Source: a virus
Reading direction: 5' to 3' (one strand)
Virus record (IMG/VR): IMGVR_UViG_3300045988_057449
Coordinates: 1 to 44,248 of that record
DNA length: 44,248 bases
A program made the position numbers and the translations under genes. Under the pieces are notes generated by a model. It searched no databases. It saw nothing but the letters and a program-made list of their open reading frames with translations, and was not told the DNA's origin. This document shows positions 4,543 through 44,248 of this stretch, piece by piece; within the stretch, counting starts at the first letter, position 1, and every line of letters starts with the position of its first letter.

Positions 4543-6386
4543 CTCACCTCCTCCAAGATTTTAAGTGCCTTTTTCGCAAGAGCGTTTATCTTACGAGTGT
4601 TCTTTTTCGGAGGTTTAATGCCAAGAAAGTCGTTGATATATCGGCTTGCGAGTTTGATGTACCATGTTCGATCGAGACAGTCGATGCTTTGCTCATTGTT
4701 ATTGTCGATAATGCAGTGTTCCGGCAATCCTCCGATTTTGACATCGTTACCTTTCTCCGCATGGCGTTTGAGGAGAGTTCCGTACTTTCTGTCTTTTGCC
4801 GCATAAACACGGTTACACTTCTGTACTTGAACTTTCTCACCGTCCACAACATGATAGGCGGCAGTATATTTACTCGATGCTTTCGCCACAAGTTGGAATG
4901 ATAGGAGATCATTGCAGCCGTTAATTGTGTCTTTCACGGGAACGCCCTTTGCGAAATAGTCGAGTAAGGCTTTGGCAACGATAGTCGCATTATTGTTGAT
5001 GTTGAACGCTCCTGCCGGAGCGATACCTCGTACCAACTGACCGCCTTTGATCTTAGTGCTACCGTCAATGGCAATTTCGATGTAGTTATTAACATCCTTT
5101 TGCACGATTTCGGCGATACAATCTTCCTCCAACTCAAACCCCGTTCTGTCCTGCCATTCCTGACAAATGGCGTTGTAGATTTCAAGGTCGCAGTTGTCGA
5201 GAGAGACCATGATGCCGTCTGTGTTCAACTGTACGATTTTCAAAGTCTCACACTCAGCCACAAGATGATTAGCCAATTCCAACAAGCGCAACTGCCCGGT
5301 TATGCACACCGACCGTCCCATAAGCGGGTCGTACAGTTCGTTGTACTGGTTGAGCATCCCGCCGTATGTGGTATTAGCAACGAGTTTCAGAGCGTTTGCC
5401 TTTGCTTTATCTCCCGACCGTTTTGCCTGTATGCGTTGTTCCAACATATCGGCGTAAACCTGTGGATTCGGTATGTTACGGGAACAGTAATGGTCGAGTG
5501 TCATTAAATGAGGGTAATAACTCGCCACATCCCTGTTTCGTATAGAGCGGTTTTCTGTGGCTCTCTCCCGATAAGTCGGGATAGCACCGTGTATGCCGCC
5601 GTAACCAATCGTGCATTGACAATCGCCTATGTTGAAATTGAGTTTGCTTGAAAAGATCTCGTAATCGCTTATGGTTTTGTCATGTAGTCGGTCGAAGAAA
5701 GCGAACACATCGTCAGGGATGTACCTCCGCAATATGTTTGACGGATATACATACTCTCGCTCGTCCGTGTATTCAACCGTCCTGTGTGCATCGAGATATG
5801 CCGCTGTCAGTTTGGCGTTTGTCATATACATTGCCTTGCTGTCAGATATGCCCTTTGCTCTTCCGAGGAATATTTTGTTGTCGAGGTAATTCTTCCGTAG
5901 GTAGTAGAGCTTTTCGGTTGCATCCACATCGTGTTTGCAGTAGAATATTACCTCTTGCAATTCTTCTTCGGTGAGGGGACGGTCAATGTTGAAATCAACG
6001 GTCGTTTCTCGAATATCCATACCGAGGTGGGCTTCGATTGCTTTAAGGGACAAACCCATTTGACAATCGTCCATAAGGTCAAATTGATCGAAGTAAATGT
6101 TTATCTCACGCATTAACGGATACTCCCAACCGTTACGCCCCTCTGCGATTATGAAATCGTTGAGTTTCTTTACTTCCTGTGGGGATGCATCTGCAAGTAC
6201 GGCTTTGTGAATGAACTGGTCGTAGTGCTTATTGTTGAAACCTCCAAGCACAGGCTCGCATTCTTCCATAAACGCCTTTGCCGCATCGTTGTCGTTATGG
6301 ACAATCGTGTAATTATCCGTACCGGCTTCCTTTGCAACGAGTACCCAATCGAAAGCAAAAACCTCGTAGTCGAAAATGTGTATCAT
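4539..6386 (-). CDS. DNA polymerase with N-terminal 3'-5' exonuclease (family-B-like motifs)
   Basis: Exo I FDYEVF, Exo II NNKHYDQF, Exo III YCKHDVDA. Polymerase motifs RDVASYYPHL (A), KLVANTTYGG (B) and LNTDGIMV (C). Confidence 0.7.
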   Translation of the reverse strand: MIHIFDYEVFAFDWVLVAKEAGTDNYTIVHNDNDAAKAFMEECEPVLGGFNNKHYDQFIHKAVLADASPQEVKKLNDFIIAEGRNGWEYPLMREINIYFDQFDLMDDCQMGLSLKAIEAHLGMDIRETTVDFNIDRPLTEEELQEVIFYCKHDVDATEKLYYLRKNYLDNKIFLGRAKGISDSKAMYMTNAKLTAAYLDAHRTVEYTDEREYVYPSNILRRYIPDDVFAFFDRLHDKTISDYEIFSSKLNFNIGDCQCTIGYGGIHGAIPTYRERATENRSIRNRDVASYYPHLMTLDHYCSRNIPNPQVYADMLEQRIQAKRSGDKAKANALKLVANTTYGGMLNQYNELYDPLMGRSVCITGQLRLLELANHLVAECETLKIVQLNTDGIMVSLDNCDLEIYNAICQEWQDRTGFELEEDCIAEIVQKDVNNYIEIAIDGSTKIKGGQLVRGIAPAGAFNINNNATIVAKALLDYFAKGVPVKDTINGCNDLLSFQLVAKASSKYTAAYHVVDGEKVQVQKCNRVYAAKDRKYGTLLKRHAEKGNDVKIGGLPEHCIIDNNNEQSIDCLDRTWYIKLASRYINDFLGIKPPKKNTRKINALAKKALKILEEVS

Positions 6387-7951
6387 TCGCTCACCTCCAA
6401 CAGGGAATCAAGCAATCTTAACGACAAGACGGATACGACATTCTCCATAACATAGAGAACACAGGGAAGAGCCATTCCGTTGCCCCACATTTTGTACTCT
6501 GCGCTATCCGAGTGGGGAACATCCTCGCACCACCAATCCGGCATACCTTGTAGTCTGCCGCACTCGGTTGGAGTCAGGCGGCGCAAGTCAACTTCGACTT
6601 TTCCAAGACAAACTATGGAACAAACCGCACCCGGTCCTTTTGCCACAAGCGTTTGGGCTATACCGCTATCATCAATCCCGATGTCATATTGGGCGTTAAT
6701 ACCCTGATTAAACGAGGAACGGTCGAGCGCATAACAGACAACAGGCTGATTGTTTCCGCTCATTCCTGCCGCTGCCGTAATGGTAGGGCATAGGTCTATT
6801 CCTATTTCTGCACCTCCCTGTTGTGTTGCCATAACGACTATCTCGTTCGCACGGGATTCTCCTATGTCATTGACATTCAGGCAGTTGGCAATAACTGCTT
6901 CCTCCCACTTTTGCGCTTCTTCCTTGCTATGCGGGCGAGTACCCTTACCGTAGATTGCTACGGCTAAACATCCCTGTCCCGTTCGGGGATTTCCTGTTGA
7001 CAAACACGGTGAAATTTTATTGTTCGGAACAGGGTCTTGAAGAATATTAAATACAACTGGAAGGTGGGTATAATCTTTGCCCGAACAGATCGTCATTGCC
7101 TTATCGCCCGTCTCTGTTTGATTAAAGCAATCTATACCTGTGATGAGGAGGTTTGTATAATCTGTTATTCTGTTTTCGTGGTCTCCTGTGATTGTGGAAC
7201 AAGTTCTACCGTCACCATTTCCACGGGCATCCCACACTTTTGCATCAGAGCCGCAAGCAAGAGAATGTGTAATTCCTTTCCACGCCTTTCTGCTCTCCGC
7301 AAAACTCCTCGACAAGCCTTCTCGCTCAAAGAGTATTTTTTCGGCACATTGTCCTCTAAAATCTGCCACAAGGAAGATTCTTCTACGGCGTTGGGGTACG
7401 CCCCAAAACTGTGCATCGAGGACTCGCCAAGCGATTGAAAACCCGTCTCCCACGATAAGTCCTGCATCGTTCCATGCGTTCCTACCCCCCCGTTTCGGAG
7501 GTTTAGGAATAAGGGTGTCACTTCTTTTAATTTTGCAGAGTTCTTCGAGGACTGTTCTGAAATCCTCTCCCTTATTGGAACTAAATGCACCAGGAACATT
7601 TTCCCATATTGCGATTGAGGGGTATCTTCCATTGGTCTTACACCTCATTTCTTTAATGATTCTTACTGCTTCCATGAATAAGCCTGAACGCTCTCCGTCA
7701 AGCCCGGCTCTCTTTCCTGCAACCGAGAGGTCTTGACACGGTGAGCCGAAAGTCACAATATCGACAGGCTCAATCTCGGCACCGTCTACTTTGGTTATGT
7801 CTCCGAGATGTTTCATTTCGGGGAAGCGTTTCTTTGTTACTTCAACGGGGAACGACTCGATTTCACTTGCCCATACTGCTTTAACTCCGCATTGTTGGGC
7901 AGCAAACGGGAATGTTCCTGCTCCGTCAAATAAACTACCGAGGGTCAGCAT
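6383..7951 (-). CDS. DNA (cytosine-5) methyltransferase with an unusually long target-recognition region
   Basis: Motifs FDGAGTF (I), GSPCQDLS (IV), ENVPG (VI), QRRRRIFLV (VIII), TPTECGRLQGMP (IX) and GNGMALP (X). I counted about 260 residues between motifs VIII and IX. Start set at ATG 7951, which has GGAGG upstream. Confidence 0.85.
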   Translation of the reverse strand: MLTLGSLFDGAGTFPFAAQQCGVKAVWASEIESFPVEVTKKRFPEMKHLGDITKVDGAEIEPVDIVTFGSPCQDLSVAGKRAGLDGERSGLFMEAVRIIKEMRCKTNGRYPSIAIWENVPGAFSSNKGEDFRTVLEELCKIKRSDTLIPKPPKRGGRNAWNDAGLIVGDGFSIAWRVLDAQFWGVPQRRRRIFLVADFRGQCAEKILFEREGLSRSFAESRKAWKGITHSLACGSDAKVWDARGNGDGRTCSTITGDHENRITDYTNLLITGIDCFNQTETGDKAMTICSGKDYTHLPVVFNILQDPVPNNKISPCLSTGNPRTGQGCLAVAIYGKGTRPHSKEEAQKWEEAVIANCLNVNDIGESRANEIVVMATQQGGAEIGIDLCPTITAAAGMSGNNQPVVCYALDRSSFNQGINAQYDIGIDDSGIAQTLVAKGPGAVCSIVCLGKVEVDLRRLTPTECGRLQGMPDWWCEDVPHSDSAEYKMWGNGMALPCVLYVMENVVSVLSLRLLDSLLEVSE

Positions 7952-9356
7952 TTTGCACCTCCTCAACGAAGTAGCAACCGTTCTTCCGATAGGTTGCACA
8001 CCTTTTTTTGAACGCTTTGACGAGATACCCTGCATCATCTATGAAGTCATAGCAGATAGGGTCTTTCTTGCCCTCAGAGACACGGGCGATACGCCCAATG
8101 CTTTGTGTGACTACCGCATAGTCTTTCTGCGGGGTAGTCATATACAAGCGTTCCAAACACGGAATGTCCAAACCCTCTTTGCAAAGAGAGTAGGTAGCGA
8201 ACAGGTACTTTTTCTTGCCCTGCCGCATATCCTCAATGGCTTTTTCCCGTTCTGCTTTACCTTTCTTCGAGGTCATCTTTCCGTTAATCATCACCGCTTG
8301 TTCACGCATAGAGCGAGGGAGAGCAACCATAAGCAATTCGAGATGTTTGAGCCTGTCCGATAGGATAAGGGACGGGTGTTCTGCATTGGCTACTATTTCG
8401 GCACTAATGTAATGATTTCGGACAGAGTTCTCACAGAGGTATGTAATGAGTTTGGCGTAATTAAGAGTACCGTCCGTATTCAGACATTCACGAGAGAGTT
8501 TTGTTCCCGTGTGGCACTCTTTAATGCCGACTTTCATTACTCTATCGGCAACGGCTTCTTCCGGCACGGTGTAAACCACCTGACCGAGCAGGGCGTAGGT
8601 TGCCTTAATCGTTCCGTCCGATCTATGCACCGTTGCGGAAAGTCCGTATTTGTACCTTGCGGCAAGATTGTTAAGGACTTTATAAAATTGTGTCATAGCA
8701 GTCGGCGTTCCTGAACATCGGTGGCACTCATCTACAATGACAACATCCCAAACATCACGGTATTTCTCCAAGTCCAAACGACACATTGTTTGCACGGTCG
8801 CAAAGGTGACTCCGCTGCCGATATTAACCTTGCCCTCGGTAATCGTACCAATGAGGTCGGAACTCATGTACAGTTCAGCTCTGCGCTTGCTTTGATTAAG
8901 CAAGTCCAATGTGTGGGTGAGCCAAAGAGTTTTAAGACCAAGTTCAGCCATTAGAGCGATACCCATTTGCGTTTTGCCGCTTCCTGCCGGACTCTGCAAG
9001 ATACCGTAGCGTTGTTCCCTCAGTACCTCAACCGCCGTTTGCTGATAGTCGTAAAGCGGCACGGAACACTCATAATTGACCCCTGTGCGCCCCGTAAAGG
9101 CACGAAAAACCTTTGCCGAGGAAACATACGGCAAGATGTCTCTAAGCACTCCAAACGGCAAAATAAGGCTGTCTCCGTGGCTTTCGTATAGACATAACTC
9201 TTTGGGCGTGTTACCGAGCCAAAAGTGCATACGGAGTTTTTTCGCATAGTCGGGATTGCTGATAACTAAGTTTTTTTCGCACCACTGTACCAACTCTGAG
9301 GATGGTTGTTCGACTGTTATGGTGCTGCCTACTGTTATCTGCATAATTTGATCCAT
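7935..9356 (-). CDS. Superfamily-2 DEAD/DEAH-box DNA helicase
   Basis: Walker A SPAGSGKT, DEAH-like VIVDECHR, and C-terminal helicase motifs TTPQKD...QSIGRIAR. Confidence 0.8.
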   Translation of the reverse strand: MDQIMQITVGSTITVEQPSSELVQWCEKNLVISNPDYAKKLRMHFWLGNTPKELCLYESHGDSLILPFGVLRDILPYVSSAKVFRAFTGRTGVNYECSVPLYDYQQTAVEVLREQRYGILQSPAGSGKTQMGIALMAELGLKTLWLTHTLDLLNQSKRRAELYMSSDLIGTITEGKVNIGSGVTFATVQTMCRLDLEKYRDVWDVVIVDECHRCSGTPTAMTQFYKVLNNLAARYKYGLSATVHRSDGTIKATYALLGQVVYTVPEEAVADRVMKVGIKECHTGTKLSRECLNTDGTLNYAKLITYLCENSVRNHYISAEIVANAEHPSLILSDRLKHLELLMVALPRSMREQAVMINGKMTSKKGKAEREKAIEDMRQGKKKYLFATYSLCKEGLDIPCLERLYMTTPQKDYAVVTQSIGRIARVSEGKKDPICYDFIDDAGYLVKAFKKRCATYRKNGCYFVEEVQNADPR

Positions 9357-15536: not shown

Positions 15537-16007
15537 TTACTCCACCTCATCCCATCCGTAAACTCCCGGCTGCCATACATTCGCATCGGTAGTAGACACC
15601 CAATGCTTGTTGTTATAGGAAACCTTATCGCCCTTAGCGTAGGCATCATGCGCACCGACCGGCTGAGACCATTCGGGATATTCCACCGTGGGGTCTCCAA
15701 TTTTCGTCCACAGAGAAGTAGCCGTGTCAGGTGTCCAATCACTCTGCGAAGTGTGTGCTTGTACACAACGGTACAGGTTTTCATTATAGAGACGGATCGC
15801 TCCCACCTCATAGGCAATACTCTCAACCCACGGGGAGAAGAGGGTTGCGTGTTCGGTAGCAGTCGTTTCGTCAATCGTCCCGGTTTCTGCGAGAGTGACA
15901 AAGGCGATAGCCGAAGCGGATTCTACTGAATCTTGCCGAGCGGAGAGGAGTTCAATCTTCCTGCGCTCACGGATAATCTGCTCCTTGTTGGATAAAAACT
16001 TGAACAT
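15537..16007 (-). CDS. Protein with two CBM5/12-like carbohydrate-binding repeats
   Basis: YEVGAIRLYNENLYRCVQAHTSQSDWTP and YAKGDKVSYNNKHWVSTTDANVWQP. ATG 16007 lies 5 nt after the RT stop and uses a GGAGG inside the RT 3' end. Confidence 0.5.
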   Translation of the reverse strand: MFKFLSNKEQIIRERRKIELLSARQDSVESASAIAFVTLAETGTIDETTATEHATLFSPWVESIAYEVGAIRLYNENLYRCVQAHTSQSDWTPDTATSLWTKIGDPTVEYPEWSQPVGAHDAYAKGDKVSYNNKHWVSTTDANVWQPGVYGWDEVE

Positions 16008-16012
16008 TTTTG

Positions 16013-17125
16013 TTACCTCCATAATTCTTGATAGTATTTGTACATTCGGTTTACGAGATTATAGGTATCTCCCTGTTCGGCGTGAGCTTTCCAACTCTTG
16101 AAACACTCATCAACCTGTTCTCTTGTCAGAAGCCCCGCTTTTGCCCGTTCTACCAATTTACGGAGTTTTCTCCGTTCGTGCGAGACCTTTTCCGGGAGGA
16201 CTTTCATTACTACTTTGCCGGTCGCAGTCAACCGAAAACTGAAACCTAAGAAATGGATAGGTTGCGTTATGGGAAATAACTGTGTCTTTTTCGGACTTAG
16301 TTTCAGTCCCAATGCCGTTACCCGTTCTTCTATCAGGGCTTTGCACTTTCGCAAGTAGTCTTTATTTTCGTGAACGAGGATAAAATCATCATTGTAACGA
16401 ATATAATGTTTAATGTGAAGTTGCTCCTTAATATAGTGGTCGAGGTCATCAAGCACCGCCAACTCTACAAGTTGTGTGACCTGTGAGCCAAGCCCCATTC
16501 CTATTTCGGGATTTTCACCCTGATTGAAACTTTCGATTATTCTCACCACTTCGGAAATTGCCCACTCGTCCGCTACACGCTTTCTAACGGCGGCAATGGC
16601 TACTTCGTGGGGAGTGCTACCGAAGAAGTTTGATAAATCACATTTTAGGACATAACCCTCAACACCATGCTTTCGGTAGTAGCGTTGTAAGTGGGCTTTG
16701 AGCCTGTCCCGTGCGAATTTAGTACCTTTACCTTTTTGGCAAGCGCAATTATCGTAAATAAACGACCTTGTGATTTCTTCGGTGAGGTAGTTATCGCAAA
16801 GGCTTCTCTGAAACACTCTATCCTTTATTCGAGTGCTTACTATATCCCTTTCCTTTGGCTCGTAGACTTTGAACATTGTATATTTGCTTAATTCGTATGT
16901 ACCATTCATAAGTTGTTCTTTTAGCGCAAGGCAGTTCACTAAGCCATTTTTCACATATCCTGCAACGCTGTCTTTCCAACCGACATTCCGCTTACATACC
17001 CATAGTGCAGCATACAAGTTTCCAAAGTCACAAACCGATTCTTTTACGCTTGATTTGTTTAACATAATTAAAATTAGTTGCCGTGTATAGCGATACTTGC
17101 TATTGGAAGCAAACCGCATCGGCAC
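16013..17125 (-). CDS. DGR reverse transcriptase
   Basis: RT motifs including GLGSQVTQ ((I/L)GxxxSQ-type) and YIRYNDDFILV (YxDD). GTG start with AAGGTGA upstream. Sits immediately 3' of the TR. Confidence 0.9.
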   Translation of the reverse strand: MPMRFASNSKYRYTRQLILIMLNKSSVKESVCDFGNLYAALWVCKRNVGWKDSVAGYVKNGLVNCLALKEQLMNGTYELSKYTMFKVYEPKERDIVSTRIKDRVFQRSLCDNYLTEEITRSFIYDNCACQKGKGTKFARDRLKAHLQRYYRKHGVEGYVLKCDLSNFFGSTPHEVAIAAVRKRVADEWAISEVVRIIESFNQGENPEIGMGLGSQVTQLVELAVLDDLDHYIKEQLHIKHYIRYNDDFILVHENKDYLRKCKALIEERVTALGLKLSPKKTQLFPITQPIHFLGFSFRLTATGKVVMKVLPEKVSHERRKLRKLVERAKAGLLTREQVDECFKSWKAHAEQGDTYNLVNRMYKYYQELWR

Positions 17126-34281: not shown

Positions 34282-35940
34282 TCAAAAAATTCGCTTAAAT
34301 ACTTCCACCCGTCCCGAAGTATTACGCACCATAGCGATTGCCATAGCAAGACTATCCGGGGCATCATCGTTTTTATTTTTTGCGAACATTTTGTAGGAAA
34401 ACACATTTTGCATAAACAGACTGTAAGCCTTACTGCGCTTACCCGATTCACGGAAAATCATCATCTCCCGAATATCGGGAGCTTTATCGAAAATCCGTTG
34501 GAACTTCGCTTTATCAGAGGGAGCGGCTTTGGTAGTCAAGTTTATCCTGCGACCTTGTTTTTTAAGTTCCTCCTGTACACCTTCTTTATATGCTTCGGTC
34601 GATTTGTTTGCTTCTATTTGCATAGCGGCAACATTGTTCCTGATAACTGCCTGTGCAAGGAGCGGTTGTGTTACCTTTTTGTCCCCACTGTCGTATACAA
34701 CATCGTGAACATAAATATCGTCCCCATACTGAAAACAAACGGGTGCGGCAACAAAGTCACCGCCGCCGAATGCAGGATCAACCGCCATAAAAATCCTGTC
34801 CGGCTCTCCGTCCGGTAGCACTCCGTTATAATAGCGGAACTCTCCCGGAGAGAACAATGCGCCGTCACGCTCTATCGGCTCTCCCATATATTGTGCGTTC
34901 CAAGAAGCCATATCATTGTTTCTCTCGAATGAAGCACGGCGCATACGGTAATAGTCCGTAGAAAAGCCCACTGCGTAATCATAGTCGAATTGGCTTTCAT
35001 CGTTTTCGTCAAGAGCGGACAGATTGATTATTTCATAACGGCGATTCTTAAATCTTTCGTCATTCTCCAAAAGTTCCATCCTCAGTCCGGCAGGATCAAT
35101 CATAGACCACCGAGTACCACACCAAAGGATTTTGGCTTTCTCTTTCGCACGGGGCAGGAGATTATTATCAACCTTGCTCCACGCCGAAACAAGTCTGTCC
35201 TTGTTGAGAGCTTCTTCAATACCTCCGATAAGGTCATCAGAGATTTCAAATCCGTTACAGTCACAAGCACCGTTCAATGTTCCGTATAGCGACCGGCAAG
35301 TTAGAGAGGGATAGCGTTTCTTTCGGTCAATGTTAATAGTTTCGTCCTGCGAATTGGTTTGAACGAGTTTAGCATTTGGGAACACATCGTGCCAAAGGTA
35401 TGTCATAGGGTCGTTGATAATTTCCAAGACACCGTTATAGAACGCTTTGGTGATAGTATCGGAGTAAGCGGAATACAGGTTAGATGCTTCACTCTTTTTA
35501 CCAATGAGCCAAGTAACAAAGAACATAAGAATTGTGGTCTTACCGACACGGGGCGGCATAGAAATAAACAGCTCGTCCAACTCATCGTCCGTGAGTTTTT
35601 GTAAGGCATCCACCACTCTTTTTAACACCTTACGGCGGGGCTGATAAAATCGCTCACTCGGCTTACGGTTAATTTCGATATAGAGCAGATAGGAATCAAA
35701 GAAATGTGGGGCATCGAACAGAAGCGTTTTCTTGTAAAGCTCAAAAAATCCCTCTACATTCTTTCGATTCTTTATCGCTGCCGTAATCTTCTTACGCAAT
35801 TCTTCGTTGGTAGAGTGGGAGAGGGTAAAGTCCTCCTGCTCGATATTACGGCAGAGGGCAAACAAATCCTCATAGGCGGTGATGTCCGTAGGTGTCTTTT
35901 TTATTTTCTGAAAAATTTTTGAAATTAGGTTTTTATTCAT
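34282..35940 (-). CDS. terL: Terminase large subunit
   Basis: Walker A MPPRVGKTT, nuclease-half acidic motifs, 552 aa, followed by the portal gene. Confidence 0.85.
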   Translation of the reverse strand: MNKNLISKIFQKIKKTPTDITAYEDLFALCRNIEQEDFTLSHSTNEELRKKITAAIKNRKNVEGFFELYKKTLLFDAPHFFDSYLLYIEINRKPSERFYQPRRKVLKRVVDALQKLTDDELDELFISMPPRVGKTTILMFFVTWLIGKKSEASNLYSAYSDTITKAFYNGVLEIINDPMTYLWHDVFPNAKLVQTNSQDETINIDRKKRYPSLTCRSLYGTLNGACDCNGFEISDDLIGGIEEALNKDRLVSAWSKVDNNLLPRAKEKAKILWCGTRWSMIDPAGLRMELLENDERFKNRRYEIINLSALDENDESQFDYDYAVGFSTDYYRMRRASFERNNDMASWNAQYMGEPIERDGALFSPGEFRYYNGVLPDGEPDRIFMAVDPAFGGGDFVAAPVCFQYGDDIYVHDVVYDSGDKKVTQPLLAQAVIRNNVAAMQIEANKSTEAYKEGVQEELKKQGRRINLTTKAAPSDKAKFQRIFDKAPDIREMMIFRESGKRSKAYSLFMQNVFSYKMFAKNKNDDAPDSLAMAIAMVRNTSGRVEVFKRIF

Positions 35941-35951
35941 TGCGTACCTCC

Positions 35952-35986
35952 GAAAAGAAAAGGACTACCCCTAACGAGATAGTCCC
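35952..35986 (-). terminator. Intrinsic terminator-like hairpin, copy 2 of the conserved element
   Basis: The minus strand reads GGACTA-12 nt-TAGTCC followed by TTTTCTTTTC. It lies between the small TM gene and terL. Confidence 0.5.
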
Positions 35987-36023
35987 TGTTGACCGTTTTC
36001 GCACACCCTGTTGTATGCGCCAA

Positions 36024-36215
36024 TTAAAGCCCACCGCCGTTGAGCCAATCCCAATACTCGACCGCTCTCTTATGGCGTTTCGCTTTTTTCTTCTTTACTT
36101 CCTTTTTGCTCTCATAACAAGCACTTGCAACAAGTGCAGCGGGAGCGCATAGTACCCACAGCCATGCTCCTTTCTTCGTAAACATCGGATTCTCTTCGGC
36201 TTTCTTTTTCTTCAT
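36024..36215 (-). CDS. Small Lys-rich membrane protein
   Basis: TM segment AWLWVLCAPAALVASACY flanked by KKKK tracts. ATGA overlap with the upstream gene. Confidence 0.4.
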   Translation of the reverse strand: MKKKKAEENPMFTKKGAWLWVLCAPAALVASACYESKKEVKKKKAKRHKRAVEYWDWLNGGGL

Positions 36216-36937
36216 TTTCTACCCTTCTTTCCGCATTGGTTTACCCACCATTGTATTCGCCCAGTCATTTGCTCGTCATCAATATTCGGAATAACGAGCC
36301 TTTCGCATCTCACGGTATCACTTTTATAAATAATCTCGTTAATTGGTGGAGCGACATTTGCGATTCCCGTGATCCTACAAATCTTTGAGCTCGTTGTTCC
36401 ATTAAGACACCCATACGCAGGAAATATCTCGTCAATACCTCCATACGGCTTACAGTATGCCGCAAGCAAGAACAAATGAACTCTCGCCATTCGACCTTTC
36501 GATAAAATCGAAAAGATTAAAGATTCAATCTGTTTTCCATATCGGAGTGATAATACATCGTACCCGTCTACAATTACCCACATTGAGGGAAAAATTGTCT
36601 TGCTTTTCTGATATTCGGCTAATCTTCCGTCTATTATATCAACGATATTTCTCATTGTTAATACGGCTTTTTCAAGGTCGGACACATAAGACATCGTATG
36701 CGGCATTGCCGCATAATCGACCAAATACAAACCCGCCAAATCAAACAGAACAAACCTAATATCCACAGGAGACTTATACAGGGAAGTATAGACAAACCCA
36801 TTTCTGATGGAATCCCGGTCTTTTGTTTGGCTGCCTGAGATAAAGACATGACATTGTTCAAGCATATCAAGATACAGTCGGTTAGCATTCCCGCCCGGGG
36901 TAAACCATTGTTTCGGTGATTGCTTTTTACCAAACAT
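36212..36937 (-). CDS. Degenerate FtsK/SpoIIIE-like P-loop paralogue (motifs lost)
   Basis: Aligns along its length with the 38947-39699 product (KQWFTPGGNANRLYLDMLEQCH versus KEWNTPGGTAAAICLDMLKQSH; RIQWWVNQ versus RVQWWTDQ). Walker A is GSQTKDRDS, Walker B is VIVDGYD, and ATQRP has become AAYCKP. Confidence 0.65.
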   Translation of the reverse strand: MFGKKQSPKQWFTPGGNANRLYLDMLEQCHVFISGSQTKDRDSIRNGFVYTSLYKSPVDIRFVLFDLAGLYLVDYAAMPHTMSYVSDLEKAVLTMRNIVDIIDGRLAEYQKSKTIFPSMWVIVDGYDVLSLRYGKQIESLIFSILSKGRMARVHLFLLAAYCKPYGGIDEIFPAYGCLNGTTSSKICRITGIANVAPPINEIIYKSDTVRCERLVIPNIDDEQMTGRIQWWVNQCGKKGRK

Positions 36938-36939
36938 AT

Positions 36940-37707
36940 TCAATCCACCTCTAATATAGGCTCGTGAACACCTTTAACCCAGTTCATTTCCTTACCGTAC
37001 TTGTACATTCCTTCGTACAGGGGACGATTGTTGACAATACTACGAACACTCGTGTTTTGAAACTTCGTCCCTTTGCGGGTGCGATACCCAAGGTCGTTAA
37101 GTTCATCGGCAATAGTGAGCATCGGAGTATGCTCGTCAATCCTCTTGAACACATACTCAACAATCGGGCGTTCCGCATCATTGATAATCAGTCTGCCATT
37201 CTCAACCTTATAACCATAAGGGCAACGACCGCCCGAATAGCCACCGCACTGTGCTTTGATACTCCTGCCCTTACTCGTTCTGATGGCAATATTCTTCCGC
37301 TCCTGCTCTGCAACGAATTGAAGAAGCGCACGATAGATATTTGCAAACTCGCTACCTTCTGCAAATTCCTCTTTGGTACTAAGAAGCCGAATGTTCTTCT
37401 TTTCGAGAGTGTATAGGTAGTAAAAGTACAATTTCGTATCACGGGCAAGACGGTCGTTCTTGAAAACAATCACCGCTTCAAACGGGGGGTTGGTAACATT
37501 GTCCCCATAGAGGATTTCGTTCAGAGCGGGGCGGTCATCCTTTGCGCCGCTGATTTCGTCAATCTTCCAATCGACAATGTTATATCCGTTGGTATTAGCA
37601 TAGAGAAGAATTGCTTGCTTCTGAACATCAATACCGAACTTATCGTCTTTTGCCTGTTGTTCTGTTGATACACGAACATAGCCAATAGCGTTTTTGAATG
37701 TCTGCAT
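36940..37707 (-). CDS. Small serine recombinase (resolvase catalytic domain plus recombinase domain, no zinc ribbon or coiled coil)
   Basis: AIGYVRVSTEQQ, KNDRLARD, VAEQERKNIAIRTSKG, GGRCPYGYK. ATG 37707 has GGAGG upstream. Confidence 0.85.
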   Translation of the reverse strand: MQTFKNAIGYVRVSTEQQAKDDKFGIDVQKQAILLYANTNGYNIVDWKIDEISGAKDDRPALNEILYGDNVTNPPFEAVIVFKNDRLARDTKLYFYYLYTLEKKNIRLLSTKEEFAEGSEFANIYRALLQFVAEQERKNIAIRTSKGRSIKAQCGGYSGGRCPYGYKVENGRLIINDAERPIVEYVFKRIDEHTPMLTIADELNDLGYRTRKGTKFQNTSVRSIVNNRPLYEGMYKYGKEMNWVKGVHEPILEVD

Positions 37708-37735
37708 AGGTGAGACCTCCTTGCTTGTTGCATTT

Positions 37736-37764
37736 AGTATAGCATAGGTAAATGCAAATGTCAA
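37736..37764 (-). promoter_or_regulatory. Promoter of the recombinase operon, overlapped by an 8-bp inverted repeat
   Basis: The minus strand reads TTGACA, 17-nt spacer, TATACT. TGCATTTA (37729-37736) and TAAATGCA (37749-37756) bracket the -10 box. Confidence 0.55.
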
Positions 37765-37954
37765 GGGGTTTATATAAAAAATTCCTTTTTATTTTTCGAG
37801 TGTGTTTACGGCACTCACCCCCGCCCGCAATGCCCGCCGCAATCCCCCACGGGTACACCGTAGCCCCGGCAGGATCAGAGCCGGACGGAGCGCACGAAAA
37901 CGCACAGCAGCCGGACGAGTTGCAAAAAATCTTGAAAAAGTTTTGAAAAAACTC

Positions 37955-37983
37955 TTGACAAGTAAATACAAGCGTGATATAAT
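37955..37983 (+). promoter_or_regulatory. Consensus promoter of the plus-strand cassette
   Basis: TTGACA, 17-nt spacer, TATAAT. Two TTGAAAAA repeats lie upstream (37932 and 37943). Confidence 0.6.
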
Positions 37984-38118
37984 GATACCATAATAGAAAG
38001 AGGGCGCACCGCACAGCCGACCAAAGCAGAAGCGGAACGCCCACACAAACCAACCCACGCCGGGCGGCTGCTCCTCTATTATAGCATATACCCGGCACAA
38101 TTACAAGGAGGATTTACA

Positions 38119-38511
38119 ATGTTAAAAACAAACAGCAAGAAAGCCGCCGAAAATATCCGGGCTTACATTATGGACGGTTTCACGCCTGAGGGCTACACGG
38201 ACAACCCGCCGCAGGAATGGCACGAAATAGCCGCATTTATTCTCGACACTTTCAGAAGCGAAAAATACCACTTGCCGCAAGATTTCCGTTATTACAGAAA
38301 TAACGAGTCCGCCGCCTTCGCTGACTGGTGCGCAGGGCTTGCCGGAGTGCTTAGCACTTGCTATTATTACAACCGTTCAGCGGTTGACGATCTCGGCGCA
38401 ATCCTTGAAGAGACGGACGAAGAAAAAGCACGATACACCGAAGAGCAAGCCGAAAAAATGCTTACAACCCTGATTTATAGAGAGTTAAAGAAAGGAGCGG
38501 CGCAGAAATGA
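38119..38511 (+). CDS. Hypothetical protein (130 aa), first gene of the cassette
   Basis: AAGGAGG ribosome-binding site. No motif I can name. Confidence 0.5.
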   Translation: MLKTNSKKAAENIRAYIMDGFTPEGYTDNPPQEWHEIAAFILDTFRSEKYHLPQDFRYYRNNESAAFADWCAGLAGVLSTCYYYNRSAVDDLGAILEETDEEKARYTEEQAEKMLTTLIYRELKKGAAQK

Positions 38512-38735
38512 GAAAATACAAACTTTTAGAGCTGAAAAACCTTGTGCGCTGCGGAATGGCGCACGATCTGACTAACGCAACCGCCGCCGAAGTTATGGAA
38601 CAATGGGAACACGGCGAAAAAGTCGGGTATAGTTTGGGCGTGTACGGCATTAACGGCGGGCTAATTCAGAACACCGAAACGGGCGAATATTACGCCATTA
38701 CCGCCCGCAATTCAAATTTATTTCGTATATTCTAG
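38508..38735 (+). CDS. Hypothetical protein (75 aa)
   Basis: ATGA overlap with the upstream gene. No recognisable motif. Confidence 0.45.
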   Translation: MRKYKLLELKNLVRCGMAHDLTNATAAEVMEQWEHGEKVGYSLGVYGINGGLIQNTETGEYYAITARNSNLFRIF

Positions 38736-38782
38736 CACAGAGCCGCCCGCCGTGGCGGCTCAACTTTTAGGAGGTGCAACAA

Positions 38783-38959
38783 ATGACATTATACTATACA
38801 TATGACGAGCAAGAAGCGCAGGAATTAAAACAGCATTTCGAAAAACAGGGATATAACGTGCTAATAATCCCAATAGCGGACGAATTCCGAAAGTTTGGAG
38901 ACCCTCGCCCCGTAAAAGTAAAATACTTCATCCGTAGGGAGGGGAAATGCAAACAATGA
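38783..38959 (+). CDS. Hypothetical protein (58 aa)
   Basis: ATG 38783 has GGAGG 8 nt upstream (the ORF track starts at an upstream GTG). Overlaps the FtsK-like start. Confidence 0.4.
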   Translation: MTLYYTYDEQEAQELKQHFEKQGYNVLIIPIADEFRKFGDPRPVKVKYFIRREGKCKQ

Positions 38960-39699
38960 AAGAATGGAACACGCCCGGCGGGACTGCGGCGGCGATCTGT
39001 CTCGATATGCTCAAACAGTCGCATATACTCATAGCAGGAAGCACGGGAAGCGGCAAAAGCGTACTAATAAACAGCCTAATATATACCGCTCTTTACAAGC
39101 CGCCGACCGTCTGCGGGTTTATCCTGATAGACCCGAAGCGGGTGGAATTAAACCAATATAGACCGCTCCCGCATTGCTTGCGGTACGCATCAGAGCCGGA
39201 CGAGATCGCCGCCACGCTTGCCGCCGCCGTTGCCCTTATGGATGACCGATACAAGGCATTACAGGCGCAAGGGCTGAAAGAATGGGACGGCGGGCATATT
39301 TATATTATTATAGACGAGTTCGCCGACCTTATGACAACGCAGAAGCGGGACACGCTGCCGCAGTTGCAACGCCTTGCACAACTCGGACGGGCGGCGCATC
39401 TCCACTTGATAGCAGCCACACAGAGACCCACGAAAGATATTATAAACGGACAAATTAAAGTAAATATGGATTCCCGGCTTGCTCTGCGCTGCCCCACGGC
39501 GCAGGACTCCCGAAACATCATAAACACCAAAGGAGCGGAAACGCTGCCCCGCTTCGGCTTCGGGTACTACCTCACGCCGGAGACAATGCGCCCCGAATTA
39601 GTCAAGATACCATACACAGACCCCGCCGACCTTGCCGCCCGTGTGCAATGGTGGACAGATCAGAAAGACAAACCCCGCCGCCATTGGTGGAGCAGATAA
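38947..39699 (+). CDS. FtsK/SpoIIIE-family DNA-translocase-like ATPase (motor domain only, motifs intact)
   Basis: Walker A AGSTGSGKS, Walker B YIIIDEFADL, IAATQRPT. 250 aa. Confidence 0.8.
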   Translation: MQTMKEWNTPGGTAAAICLDMLKQSHILIAGSTGSGKSVLINSLIYTALYKPPTVCGFILIDPKRVELNQYRPLPHCLRYASEPDEIAATLAAAVALMDDRYKALQAQGLKEWDGGHIYIIIDEFADLMTTQKRDTLPQLQRLAQLGRAAHLHLIAATQRPTKDIINGQIKVNMDSRLALRCPTAQDSRNIINTKGAETLPRFGFGYYLTPETMRPELVKIPYTDPADLAARVQWWTDQKDKPRRHWWSR

Positions 39700-39705
39700 G
39701 ACACA

Positions 39706-39736
39706 AGCCCCGACACGCTGCCGGGGCTTTTCTTTT
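39706..39736 (+). terminator. Rho-independent terminator of the plus-strand cassette
   Basis: a-gccccg-acacgctgc-cggggc-t followed by ttttctttt. Confidence 0.7.
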
Positions 39737-39824
39737 ACCCTATCGCAGTAAAGCCCCCTAAAACGCTTTACAAGGCGTTTTTACTCTTACCCATATAAAA
39801 CACACTACCAACACCACAAACGCC

Positions 39825-39854
39825 GCACAGAGAGCCACAGAGAGACGCAGAGAG
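39825..39854. repeat. Three tandem 10-bp repeats, N-CACAGAGAG type
   Basis: gcacagagag / ccacagagag / acgcagagag, read directly. Noncoding. Confidence 0.8.
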
Positions 39855-39988
39855 GGCAGCCACGAGAACAAGCAAAACCCCGCAACGAGCAGCACAGCCG
39901 CCCGGCGGGGTTTCGTTGTATCTATTTCGGCGTGGGGTTTCAGGCGAGGACGGCGGCAGGGCTTGCCGCTTTCCGTCCTCCCGCAAGT

Positions 39989-40018
39989 GCCTTTGTGCGC
40001 CTTTGTGCGCCTTTGTGC
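39989..40018. repeat. Three exact tandem copies of GCCTTTGTGC abutting the terS stop codon
   Basis: Read directly. Two more exact copies are at 40864-40873 and 40885-40894. Two CCTTTGTGT copies are at 40067-40084. Confidence 0.9.
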
Positions 40019-40022
40019 GTTT

Positions 40023-40565
40023 CTATTCGTCCTCGACAACGCTTTCAATATACCGCTCTTCAAGCTCCTTTGTGTCCTTTGTGTCTCCGAGCGGGCTATT
40101 GGGAGTGAGTACAACTTCCTGTTTGTCGGCATAGCCGAAATTATTCTTCATGAGGAAGATGCCGGACACAGGGTTGATCTTGCCATTCTGCATATAATCG
40201 ACCATTTGAAGATCGAGTAATTTCATCGCTTTTTTTAGAGTGTTGGCTACCTCAGGATTTTTACCTTTTCGCCCTGCTCGTATTTCCCACAGATATGTTC
40301 TATCAATATCCATAGCAAGAGCCAATCCCGCAACAGAGGGTTTCATATCGTCATCAGCACAAATCGAGAAGTAATCTCTAATTCTTTGTGTCACTTCTTC
40401 AACACTCTTCAAATCACATTTCGGTAAATCAGCCAAGCGAAGCGAGTGCAAGATGTACTTCCGATTGTCTCCCGGCTCAGTATGAACACTTTGTGCTTCG
40501 GTCAAATCAGGGCGTTTCCGCTTTGTGATTTGCTTGCCGACTTCTCTCGCTGTCTTATTATCCAT
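40023..40565 (-). CDS. terS: Terminase small subunit (gp3/GP3_package-like)
   Basis: KPSVAGLALAMDIDRTYLWEI... and GIFLMKNNFGYADKQE signature. AAAGGAG ribosome-binding site. Confidence 0.65.
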   Translation of the reverse strand: MDNKTAREVGKQITKRKRPDLTEAQSVHTEPGDNRKYILHSLRLADLPKCDLKSVEEVTQRIRDYFSICADDDMKPSVAGLALAMDIDRTYLWEIRAGRKGKNPEVANTLKKAMKLLDLQMVDYMQNGKINPVSGIFLMKNNFGYADKQEVVLTPNSPLGDTKDTKELEERYIESVVEDE

Positions 40566-44025: not shown

Positions 44026-44248
44026 TTACCTCCTATATTTCGTAACTGAGTTTACTATTGTTTGTATTTCCCCGACCGCCAGCGGGGGTTTACAAGCCGC
44101 TTGATTGGCTTTGAGGAGTTCTTTATAAATCTCCTGCTTTTTGTAACCTTGATTGTGTAACTGCCCTGCGAGAGAGGTTAGGCTAAGGTTTCTCATACCT
44201 TGCGGTATGGGCGGGTATGTGGGTTGAATAGAAATTTTACCTTTCTCC
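44026..44248 (-). CDS. Primase-polymerase, 3' part (PriCT-1-like C-terminal domain); same gene as 1-618
   Basis: Reading through the junction gives ...PIPQGMRNLSLTSLAGQLHNQGYKKQEIYKELLKANQAACKPPLAVGEIQTIVNSVTKYRR, ending at the stop at 44026-44028. Confidence 0.7.
   Translation of the reverse strand, partial: EKGKISIQPTYPPIPQGMRNLSLTSLAGQLHNQGYKKQEIYKELLKANQAACKPPLAVGEIQTIVNSVTKYRR
44194..44248. repeat. Second copy of the 55-bp terminal overlap
   Basis: Identical to bases 1-55. Confidence 0.95.

Follow-up and report, generated by a model that had tools for sequence, protein, structure and literature searches.

A catalytically degenerate FtsK paralogue in a variable cargo slot of a temperate gut phage that also encodes an intact mini-FtsK

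The window described herein is the whole 44,248-nucleotide stretch of the virus record IMGVR_UViG_3300045988_057449. Its two ends (1–55 and 44194–44248) overlap by 55 bp; hence, the contig is a circular assembly and represents a complete genome of ~44.2 kb. Between the genes for the small (terS) and large (terL) terminase subunits, it carries two oppositely oriented genes of the FtsK/SpoIIIE family, namely an intact motor, herein called mini-FtsK, and a paralogue with degenerate catalytic motifs, herein called pseudo-FtsK. Sequence comparisons argue that pseudo-FtsK is no decaying copy but a functional gene kept by purifying selection. It may act as a motor mimic in superinfection exclusion or defence and would, thus, be an accessory conflict gene—a reading that is favoured here, albeit tentatively. 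The locus pairs an active mini-motor with its apparently dead natural version under purifying selection, in a slot that holds exclusion and defence genes in relatives, and the degenerate module is recurrently fused to a nuclease.

Mini-FtsK reaches 119.6 bits against Pfam PF01580 (FtsK_SpoIIIE, gathering score 24 bits). All of its motifs are intact: the Walker A motif GSTGSGKS, the Walker B motif IIIDEFADL, the arginine finger in LGRAAH, and the sensor Q in ATQRP. It aligns to residues 160–418 only of the Escherichia coli FtsK motor chain 2IUS (E value 1.2e-37), with conservation of the Walker motifs, the arginine-finger position, and QRP. The transmembrane and alpha domains as well as the gamma domain, a winged helix that binds the FtsK-orienting polar sequences (KOPS), are absent, and the score against the cellular-FtsK equivalog is 132.6 bits compared with a cut-off of 1566. 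By the missing domains and this score, mini-FtsK is classified as a member of the FtsK/SpoIIIE family that is not an orthologue of cellular FtsK. In PADLOC, it matches the C terminus of SspH (4.7e-32) and mad8 (3.1e-25), both being FtsK-like parts. More than 3781 homologues, nearly all of 240–260 residues, make up its family. It is matched by 366 phage records, and annotated FtsK-like genes exist in hundreds of tailed phages.

Mini-FtsK is a fixed-position gene of a large Oscillospirales-associated group of temperate phages. In relatives with a 52–100% identical mini-FtsK, the order is nearly always portal, TerL, a variable slot, and a short serine recombinase; these are followed by small variable genes and mini-FtsK, encoded on the other strand, and finally by TerS and the D5 primase. 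A recent mobile insertion of the whole module was rejected since relatives with as little as ~52% FtsK identity still have it at the same place between terS and terL. In phages with a 43–48% identical mini-FtsK, terS and terL are adjacent, and the FtsK block is located ~2 kb upstream of them, in an orientation that is again opposite to that of its neighbours; a relative of the window's recombinase was not found beside the FtsK block in these phages.

Pseudo-FtsK and mini-FtsK are colinear from end to end: residues 6–240 of the former align with residues 2–245 of the latter with 73 identities in 248 positions (29%; BLASTP E value 3e-28). The Walker A motif is replaced by GSQTKDRDS, in which Lys is changed to Arg and Ser to Asp, the Walker B motif by VIVDGYD (Glu to Gly), and QRP by AAYCKP. 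By descent, the protein is a member of the FtsK/SpoIIIE family; by motif, it is not an ATPase, and neither binding nor hydrolysis of ATP is expected. The family-specific terminal motifs W.TPGG (N terminus) and R.QWW..Q (C terminus), the arginine-finger position (R149), and the length are retained. Pseudo-FtsK scores 95 bits against mini-FtsK of its own phage and 35 bits against E. coli FtsK. Together with the common termini and the same length, these scores assign its origin to the phage mini-FtsK lineage and not to cellular FtsK. An original prediction, made from the sequence letters and their open reading frames (ORFs), had described an oppositely oriented pair of paralogues, one intact and one with all three motifs degenerate; the ORFs and every motif quoted there are present, both proteins fall into Pfam FtsK_SpoIIIE, and the motif alignment agrees with true paralogy. 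A recent duplication, already doubted in the prediction, is ruled out—as is gene conversion—by the 29% identity and the absence of similarity at the DNA level. The difference in composition on which that doubt was built is real. Pseudo-FtsK has a GC content of 40.9% (40.5% at third codon positions) and mini-FtsK of 54.4% (62.2%), with a genome average of 45.8%. However, mini-FtsK is richer in GC in most relatives, exceeding the flanking DNA by 3.9 points on average over 56 loci. Hence, its high GC content is a property of the gene across the whole group and no mark of recent foreign acquisition.

The selection acting on pseudo-FtsK can be appreciated from a comparison of the window with the allele of locus L007, which differs at 17 synonymous and 5 non-synonymous sites (ratio of non-synonymous to synonymous rates, dN/dS, 0.076). 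In place of the P-loop, the homologues share a replacement pocket, G-x-Q-T-x-D-R-D-x-x-R-x-G-F, that is invariant or nearly so among alleles of only 39–54% identity, and VDG[YF] replaces the DE of Walker B. In the AlphaFold2 model (mean predicted local distance difference test, pLDDT, 79; predicted template modelling score 0.82), the motor fold is retained: in Foldseek, the best matches are FtsK motor structures (E value 3.4e-10, template modelling scores 0.64–0.67), followed by the coupling protein TcpA of pCW3 and the degenerate D2/D3 domains of EccC/EssC. The low dN/dS, the conserved replacement motif, and the retained predicted fold together speak for a functional gene. They also bear on whether pseudo-FtsK could be a non-functional relic, that is, a decaying duplicate or the remnant of an old mobile element beside a truncated recombinase. 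The loss of all catalytic motifs, the missing C-terminal half of the adjacent recombinase, and an AT content above that of the neighbouring genes would suit such a relic. However, the ORF is intact in all alleles, the recombinase is under even stronger constraint (dN/dS 0.008), the new motif persists down to 39% identity in a confidently folded model, and the module recurs in fusions. By these selection and conservation data, the relic explanation is largely refuted and appears very improbable.

Pseudo-FtsK is located just 3' of the recombinase gene in a hypervariable slot. In loci L001–L006, both flanks show 94–97% DNA identity to the window, but the core of the gene (36260–36853) cannot be aligned, and the protein encoded at this position is only 43–44% identical to that of the window. 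The intact FtsK beside these alleles is 96–98% identical. In L016, the recombinase is 99% identical; homology ends at 36951, the end of the recombinase, and resumes at 36210, the start of a 63-residue gene, and the gap is filled by a zinc-ribbon membrane protein. Every cargo variant diverges directly after the recombinase codons for ...VKGVHEPIL, and the size of the slot varies between 13 bp and 2.6 kb (38 loci). Pseudo-FtsK is, thus, variable at a fixed position and exchanged for other accessory genes in close relatives, which is a feature of a prophage exclusion or defence moron. The other cargo includes membrane-anchored Mrr_cat nucleases, Lipoprotein_Ltp repeats, a DUF4352 membrane protein, a PBECR2 nuclease-type protein, and Bro-N (Table 1). 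Ltp is a characterised superinfection-exclusion protein, and the remaining types are typical of defence or conflict genes. The original prediction had offered two successive acquisitions at one hotspot as an explanation for the gene pair. This does not hold: the intact gene is fixed throughout the group, and only the degenerate copy resides in the swappable slot. The prediction had described the two FtsK genes correctly; it had omitted the serine recombinase between them, the defence-type cargo of the relatives, and the Mrr-nuclease fusions.

Another source of allelic variation was considered. A reverse transcriptase gene (16013–17125, minus strand; RVT_1 5.3e-16) adjoins the gene of a CBM_5_12 protein (15537–16022, minus strand) near the tail genes, and this pair may, by its sequence, constitute a diversity-generating retroelement. 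Such elements vary a short adenine-targeted stretch. The pseudo-FtsK alleles differ over their whole length (43–54% identity), and a retroelement was set aside as the origin of their variation.

The recombinase that borders the slot is a shortened form of a serine recombinase. Its Recombinase domain is partial (profile positions 3–87 of 102; positions 79–344 of 651 in PHROG 95), and it ends within this domain right after ...VKGVHEPIL, to which the cargo variants add differing tails of 2–16 residues. It contains neither a zinc ribbon (Zn_ribbon_recom) nor a coiled coil; the zinc ribbon is present in the complete 518-residue large serine integrase of the phage (12387–13943). In large serine recombinases, the zinc ribbon and the coiled coil are needed for synapsis of the attachment sites. 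The short form also occurs in relatives, and in the comparison with L007 it shows 29 synonymous and only 1 non-synonymous difference. The junctions after ...VKGVHEPIL fit equally with capture of cassettes by the recombinase and with homologous exchange that uses the conserved recombinase gene as one arm.

The slot bears directly on whether pseudo-FtsK could be a regulatory pseudo-enzyme partner of its own mini-FtsK, herein a dead subunit that joins or caps the active ring and adjusts its DNA translocation while the phage itself replicates, segregates, or packages its genome. Wherever a pseudo-FtsK locus is long enough to include both genes, they lie in divergent units at a distance of 2 kb. 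The window protein also retains the fold, the termini typical of the family, and the residue at the arginine-finger position, and the regulation of EccC/EssC by degenerate ATPase domains offers a comparable case. However, none of 78 IMG/VR phages with mini-FtsK carries a nearby pseudo-FtsK, which means that the motor works without it, and the strongly diverged alleles beside a nearly identical intact FtsK show no co-variation. In addition, the slot is otherwise used for unrelated genes of exclusion or defence, and several members of the family no longer have the arginine finger. Such a partnership is, therefore, quite unlikely. The original prediction had suggested that either copy may serve the other as a pseudo-enzyme partner or decoy; a decoy or pseudo-enzyme remains a reasonable description, but an obligatory partnership is unlikely.

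Among the best 150 representative hits to the pseudo-FtsK profile, nine protein clusters fuse an Mrr_cat nuclease to the mini-FtsK module. The nuclease is N-terminal in three and C-terminal in six of them, and several contain hydrophobic stretches that fit membrane segments. Both Walker motifs are intact in none of the nine fusions and in most of the unfused hits, a list that is biased toward degenerate members by the profile used to retrieve it. One fusion, P0126, belongs to the subgroup of the window protein itself and combines a transmembrane segment, Mrr_cat, and pseudo-FtsK. It is encoded directly after a recombinase that shares 98.75% identity with the window's recombinase over the last 80 residues; by sequence, this places P0126 in the very slot of this phage lineage that pseudo-FtsK occupies in the window. 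In a rough identity clustering, which is not a phylogeny, the other fusions group with different intact proteins. This suggests that inactivation and fusion were repeated independently.

Pseudo-FtsK is rare. A word-indexed search of 5.8 billion sequences found three clusters, an exhaustive profile search of 1.8 billion representatives gave five hits below 1e-30, and pseudo-FtsK was not found in 185,579 species-representative genomes. Within its subgroup, P0127 (GCA_016648615.1) is a degenerate mini-FtsK encoded directly 3' of addB/addA in a bacterial genome; this neighbourhood could be due to chance or reflect a functional link to DNA-end processing.

The fusions also raise the alternative of an adaptor for nucleic-acid binding or sensing that acts independently of mini-FtsK. 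In this case, binding of DNA or a phage protein by pseudo-FtsK would switch on an effector in the manner of an abortive-infection or restriction system, the effector being the fused Mrr in relatives and here perhaps the 63-residue membrane protein encoded downstream. The recurrent Mrr_cat fusion, usually with transmembrane segments, is consistent with it, as are the translational coupling to the 63-residue protein by an ATGA overlap of the pseudo-FtsK stop with its start and the defence-type genes in the slot of relatives. However, the region that carries QRP and contacts DNA in FtsK has been replaced in pseudo-FtsK and shows little order in the model, and the retained mini-FtsK-specific termini suggest that a family-specific contact was kept. 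The 63-residue gene is also no dedicated partner: it is kept with the unrelated cargo of L016 (90% identity of the protein) and absent from L010. Overall, an adaptor of this kind appears unlikely. The protein itself is 100% identical in L001–L008 and has no family match in Pfam, PHROG, or PADLOC.

The preferred reading, a motor mimic for exclusion or defence, draws on homology, motif loss, purifying selection, the retained fold, the slot position, allele swapping, and the Mrr fusions as its observed basis. From these, we infer expression in the lysogen, physical contact with mini-FtsK, and an exclusion phenotype. Mechanistically, pseudo-FtsK would be a captured and inactivated copy of the phage group's own motor that is carried as exclusion or defence cargo. 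Its nucleotide pocket would have been rebuilt into the conserved charged motif, so that ATP is neither bound nor hydrolysed. It could then dock onto, cap, or poison the mini-FtsK assemblies of related incoming phages, or act on their DNA substrates. Where the module is fused to the membrane-anchored Mrr nuclease, as in relatives, it would bring the nuclease to that target.

Several points weigh against the motor mimic. Residues 162–195, which correspond to the QRP motif and the DNA-contact loops of FtsK, have a pLDDT below 50. The window protein and its closest alleles retain the residue at the arginine-finger position, but P0124 has K, P0126 has T, and P0128 has E there; hence, a conserved ring interface is not established, and finger retention is weakened as a proof of co-assembly into a ring. 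An Mrr_cat gene was not found elsewhere in the window genome, and its minus-strand unit is devoid of a nuclease. Therefore, pseudo-FtsK on its own would either depend on a different effector or have poisoning as its only mode of action. PADLOC gave no match for pseudo-FtsK, nor for the recombinase or the small proteins, and the promoters and terminators that would make the unit self-contained are pattern matches only. The resident phage's own mini-FtsK would also be exposed to a poison subunit and would have to be spared. The same data would also fit an anti-defence role, in which the mimic poisons an FtsK-based system of a resident prophage. Finally, no function is assigned to mini-FtsK, and the role of phage FtsK-like proteins is stated to be unclear (PMC3706429, PMC3335513), in agreement with the original prediction.

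A more specific version of the mimic, held to be doubtful, takes mini-FtsK as a core DNA-handling motor of the phage group and regards the dead copies as "Trojan subunits" that prophages of this group use as weapons. Alone or tethered to the membrane-anchored Mrr nuclease, they would co-assemble with the motor of a related phage that enters the cell, whose DNA would then be blocked or cut, and an arms race would explain the rapid turnover of slot alleles.

Two divergent, probably self-contained transcription units make up the region from terS to terL (Table 1). The plus-strand unit consists of a predicted promoter, the genes for 130, 75, and 61 residues, mini-FtsK, and a hairpin with a T-run. 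The minus-strand unit consists of a predicted promoter, the recombinase, pseudo-FtsK, the 63-residue gene, and a hairpin, after which terL follows. The two FtsK genes are separated by the recombinase gene and a promoter region of 354 bp. Bracketed by its promoter-like and terminator-like sites, the minus-strand unit is predicted to be autonomous. An 18-nt inverted repeat (arms 37719–37736 and 37749–37766) forms a palindrome that overlaps its promoter-like site and may be an operator or a recombinase-binding site, by analogy to the autoregulation at Tn3 res. A second small indel site of the unit is seen in L007 (4309–4665) and L008 (3418–3774), which contain an extra 118-residue gene between the 63-residue gene and terL.

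Table 1 Features of the terS–terL region of the window and cargo found in the corresponding slot of relatives.
Feature	Position or loci	Strand	Basis
Pseudo-FtsK, 241 residues; ATG at 36937 preceded by GAGGTGGA	36212–36937	-	Pfam FtsK_SpoIIIE 28.4 bits (cut-off 24)
Mini-FtsK, 250 residues; beta (RecA-like) motor domain only	38947–39699	+	Pfam FtsK_SpoIIIE 1.7e-34; PHROG 1358 1.9e-62
Short serine recombinase, 255 residues; catalytic motif YVRVSTEQQ; first gene of minus unit	36940–37707	-	Pfam Resolvase 2.8e-26, Recombinase 1.4e-9
Lysine-rich protein, 63 residues; one hydrophobic helix (AWLWVLCAPAALVASACY); predicted single-helix membrane protein	36024–36215	-	ORF list
Small variable genes 5' of mini-FtsK, same unit: 130 residues, 38119–38511 (PHROG 11100); 75 residues, 38508–38735; 61 residues, 38774–38959	38119–38959	+	ORFs, PHROG
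Sigma-70-type promoter of plus unit: TTGACA, 17-nt spacer, TATAAT, TG extension	37955–37983	+	12/12 hexamer matches, pattern only
Promoter-like site of minus unit: TTGACA, 17-nt spacer, TATACT	37736–37764	-	11/12 hexamer matches, pattern only
Terminator-like GC-rich hairpin, then TTCTTTT, directly after mini-FtsK stop	39705–39729	.	Pattern match
Terminator-like hairpin, 12 pairs, between 63-residue gene and terL; closes minus unit	35960–35987	-	Pattern match
Small terminase subunit (flank)	40023–40565	-	Pfam GP3_package 9.3e-15; PHROG 606
Large terminase subunit (flank)	34282–35940	-	Pfam terminase RNaseH-like domains
Slot cargo: transmembrane + Mrr_cat nuclease family	10 loci		Pfam on one member, 8.4e-26
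Slot cargo: protein with three Lipoprotein_Ltp repeats	L048/L049		2.4e-71
Slot cargo: DUF4352 membrane protein			Weak precomputed Pfam hit
Slot cargo: PBECR2 nuclease-type protein			
Slot cargo: Bro-N			

The region 5' of mini-FtsK is likewise variable. In L011, L014, and L016, the position of the small genes is filled by other genes, and the stretch 38783–38951, which covers the 61-residue ORF region, is an insertion missing from close relatives. In the plus-strand unit, the consensus promoter is separated from the first gene by a leader of ~130 nt (37990–38118, plus strand) without an Rfam match. A GC-rich core (AGCCGCCCGNCG) occurs three times (38048–38070, 38741–38755, and 39893–39917). 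Two of its copies form a 23-nt inverted repeat (38048–38070 and 39895–39917, 87%) flanking the plus-strand block, and the third copy (38741–38755) borders the insertion. An invertible segment driven by the recombinase was considered for this repeat and not adopted, as all loci examined share the same orientation and no inverted block was seen. The convergent mini-FtsK and terS genes are separated by a GC-rich non-coding stretch (39740–40022) with 10-nt tandem repeats, namely GCCTTTGTGC in three copies at 39989–40019 and CACAGAGAGA in three copies at 39826–39854. This stretch could be a packaging or binding site.

According to profile searches with Pfam and PHROG, the genome codes for a portal, TerL, TerS, tail proteins, a D5-type primase/helicase, an Erf/YqaJ recombination pair, and a C5 methylase. 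A helix-turn-helix repressor gene adjoins the integrase gene. By its structural genes, repressor, and complete integrase, the phage is assigned to the temperate siphophages. The host is probably a gut Clostridia species of the Oscillospirales type. The nearest genome-resident relatives of mini-FtsK (63–70% identity) are found in metagenome-assembled genomes of Clostridiales, Anaerotruncus, and Acutalibacteraceae, with those of Oscillospiraceae following at ~47–54% identity. A megablast search with the region as query gave no DNA-level similarity to any GenBank phage, and an Rfam scan of the whole window gave no match. On the minus strand, 631–1477 and 6383–8038 code for a protein with a MazZ-like dATP/dGTP diphosphohydrolase N-domain (8.2e-23), a weak HD-domain protein, and the C5 cytosine methylase. 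Together, these hint at manipulation of the nucleotide pool or modification of the DNA; a PurZ-like gene was not seen.

If the mimicry were true, it would mean that immunity can be built on the imitation of a subunit of a viral motor, and it would provide the first functional handle on the FtsK-like motors of tailed phages. Pseudo-FtsK would then be a natural dominant-negative that could serve as a genetic tool to probe motor function. Furthermore, the slot is a well-delimited cargo hotspot of gut Clostridia phages, reaching from the recombinase over the cargo to terL, that could be mined for new defence or counter-defence genes. The general principle has already been proposed. In "HerA/FtsK capture", defence systems are proposed to acquire FtsK-type domains of mobile-element or cellular origin and to combine them with restriction endonucleases, which would give them access to invader DNA during segregation, transfer, or packaging (PMC10853773). 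Pseudo-FtsK would add a compact phage-borne example to this proposed class. Degenerate FtsK domains, too, are already known from the ATPases of type VII secretion. Full-text searches of the literature found no description of a free-standing degenerate phage FtsK or of Mrr fused to a dead mini-FtsK.

Compared with cellular FtsK/SpoIIIE (E. coli 2IUS, Pseudomonas aeruginosa 2IUU and 6T8B), mini-FtsK matches the beta domain with conserved motifs, and the pseudo-FtsK model adopts the same fold. However, both phage proteins are devoid of the membrane anchor, the linker, the alpha domain, and the KOPS-reading gamma domain, and pseudo-FtsK is additionally devoid of the catalytic residues. Soluble FtsK motors in tailed phages with TerL are also found in the mycobacteriophages of Cluster J (Omega gp203) and in temperate phages of the Bacillus cereus group (phIS3501 p50), whose records match mini-FtsK with 36–42% identity. 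The Cluster J proteins differ by keeping a gamma-like C-terminal domain that is absent here, and the papers on these phages describe no degenerate FtsK paralogue (PMC3706429, PMC3335513).

The systems of HerA/FtsK capture (DndH, SspH, and related; PMC10853773) resemble the present locus by containing an FtsK-type domain of mobile lineage; here, the closest intact relatives are phage mini-FtsKs with common termini. A link to an endonuclease occurs only in the relatives of pseudo-FtsK, namely in the nine Mrr_cat fusions including P0126 of the same slot. In contrast to these systems, the module is small, catalytically dead by motif, and located in a prophage that also codes for an active version, and the copy of the window is not linked to a nuclease. 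The D2/D3 domains of EccC/EssC of type VII secretion share the FtsK fold and altered catalytic motifs, being structural matches of pseudo-FtsK and giving weak NCBIfam hits. They have regulatory or binding roles. However, they are tandem domains of one large membrane protein and still bind nucleotide, whereas pseudo-FtsK is a single free-standing domain in which the lysine and serine of the P-loop are replaced. Finally, Ltp of the Streptococcus thermophilus phage TP-J34 is, as predicted for pseudo-FtsK, an accessory gene product of a self-contained unit inside a prophage, and a protein of the Ltp family occupies the same slot in L048/L049. The two belong to unrelated families, and pseudo-FtsK is, by its sequence, a cytoplasmic protein and not a surface lipoprotein.

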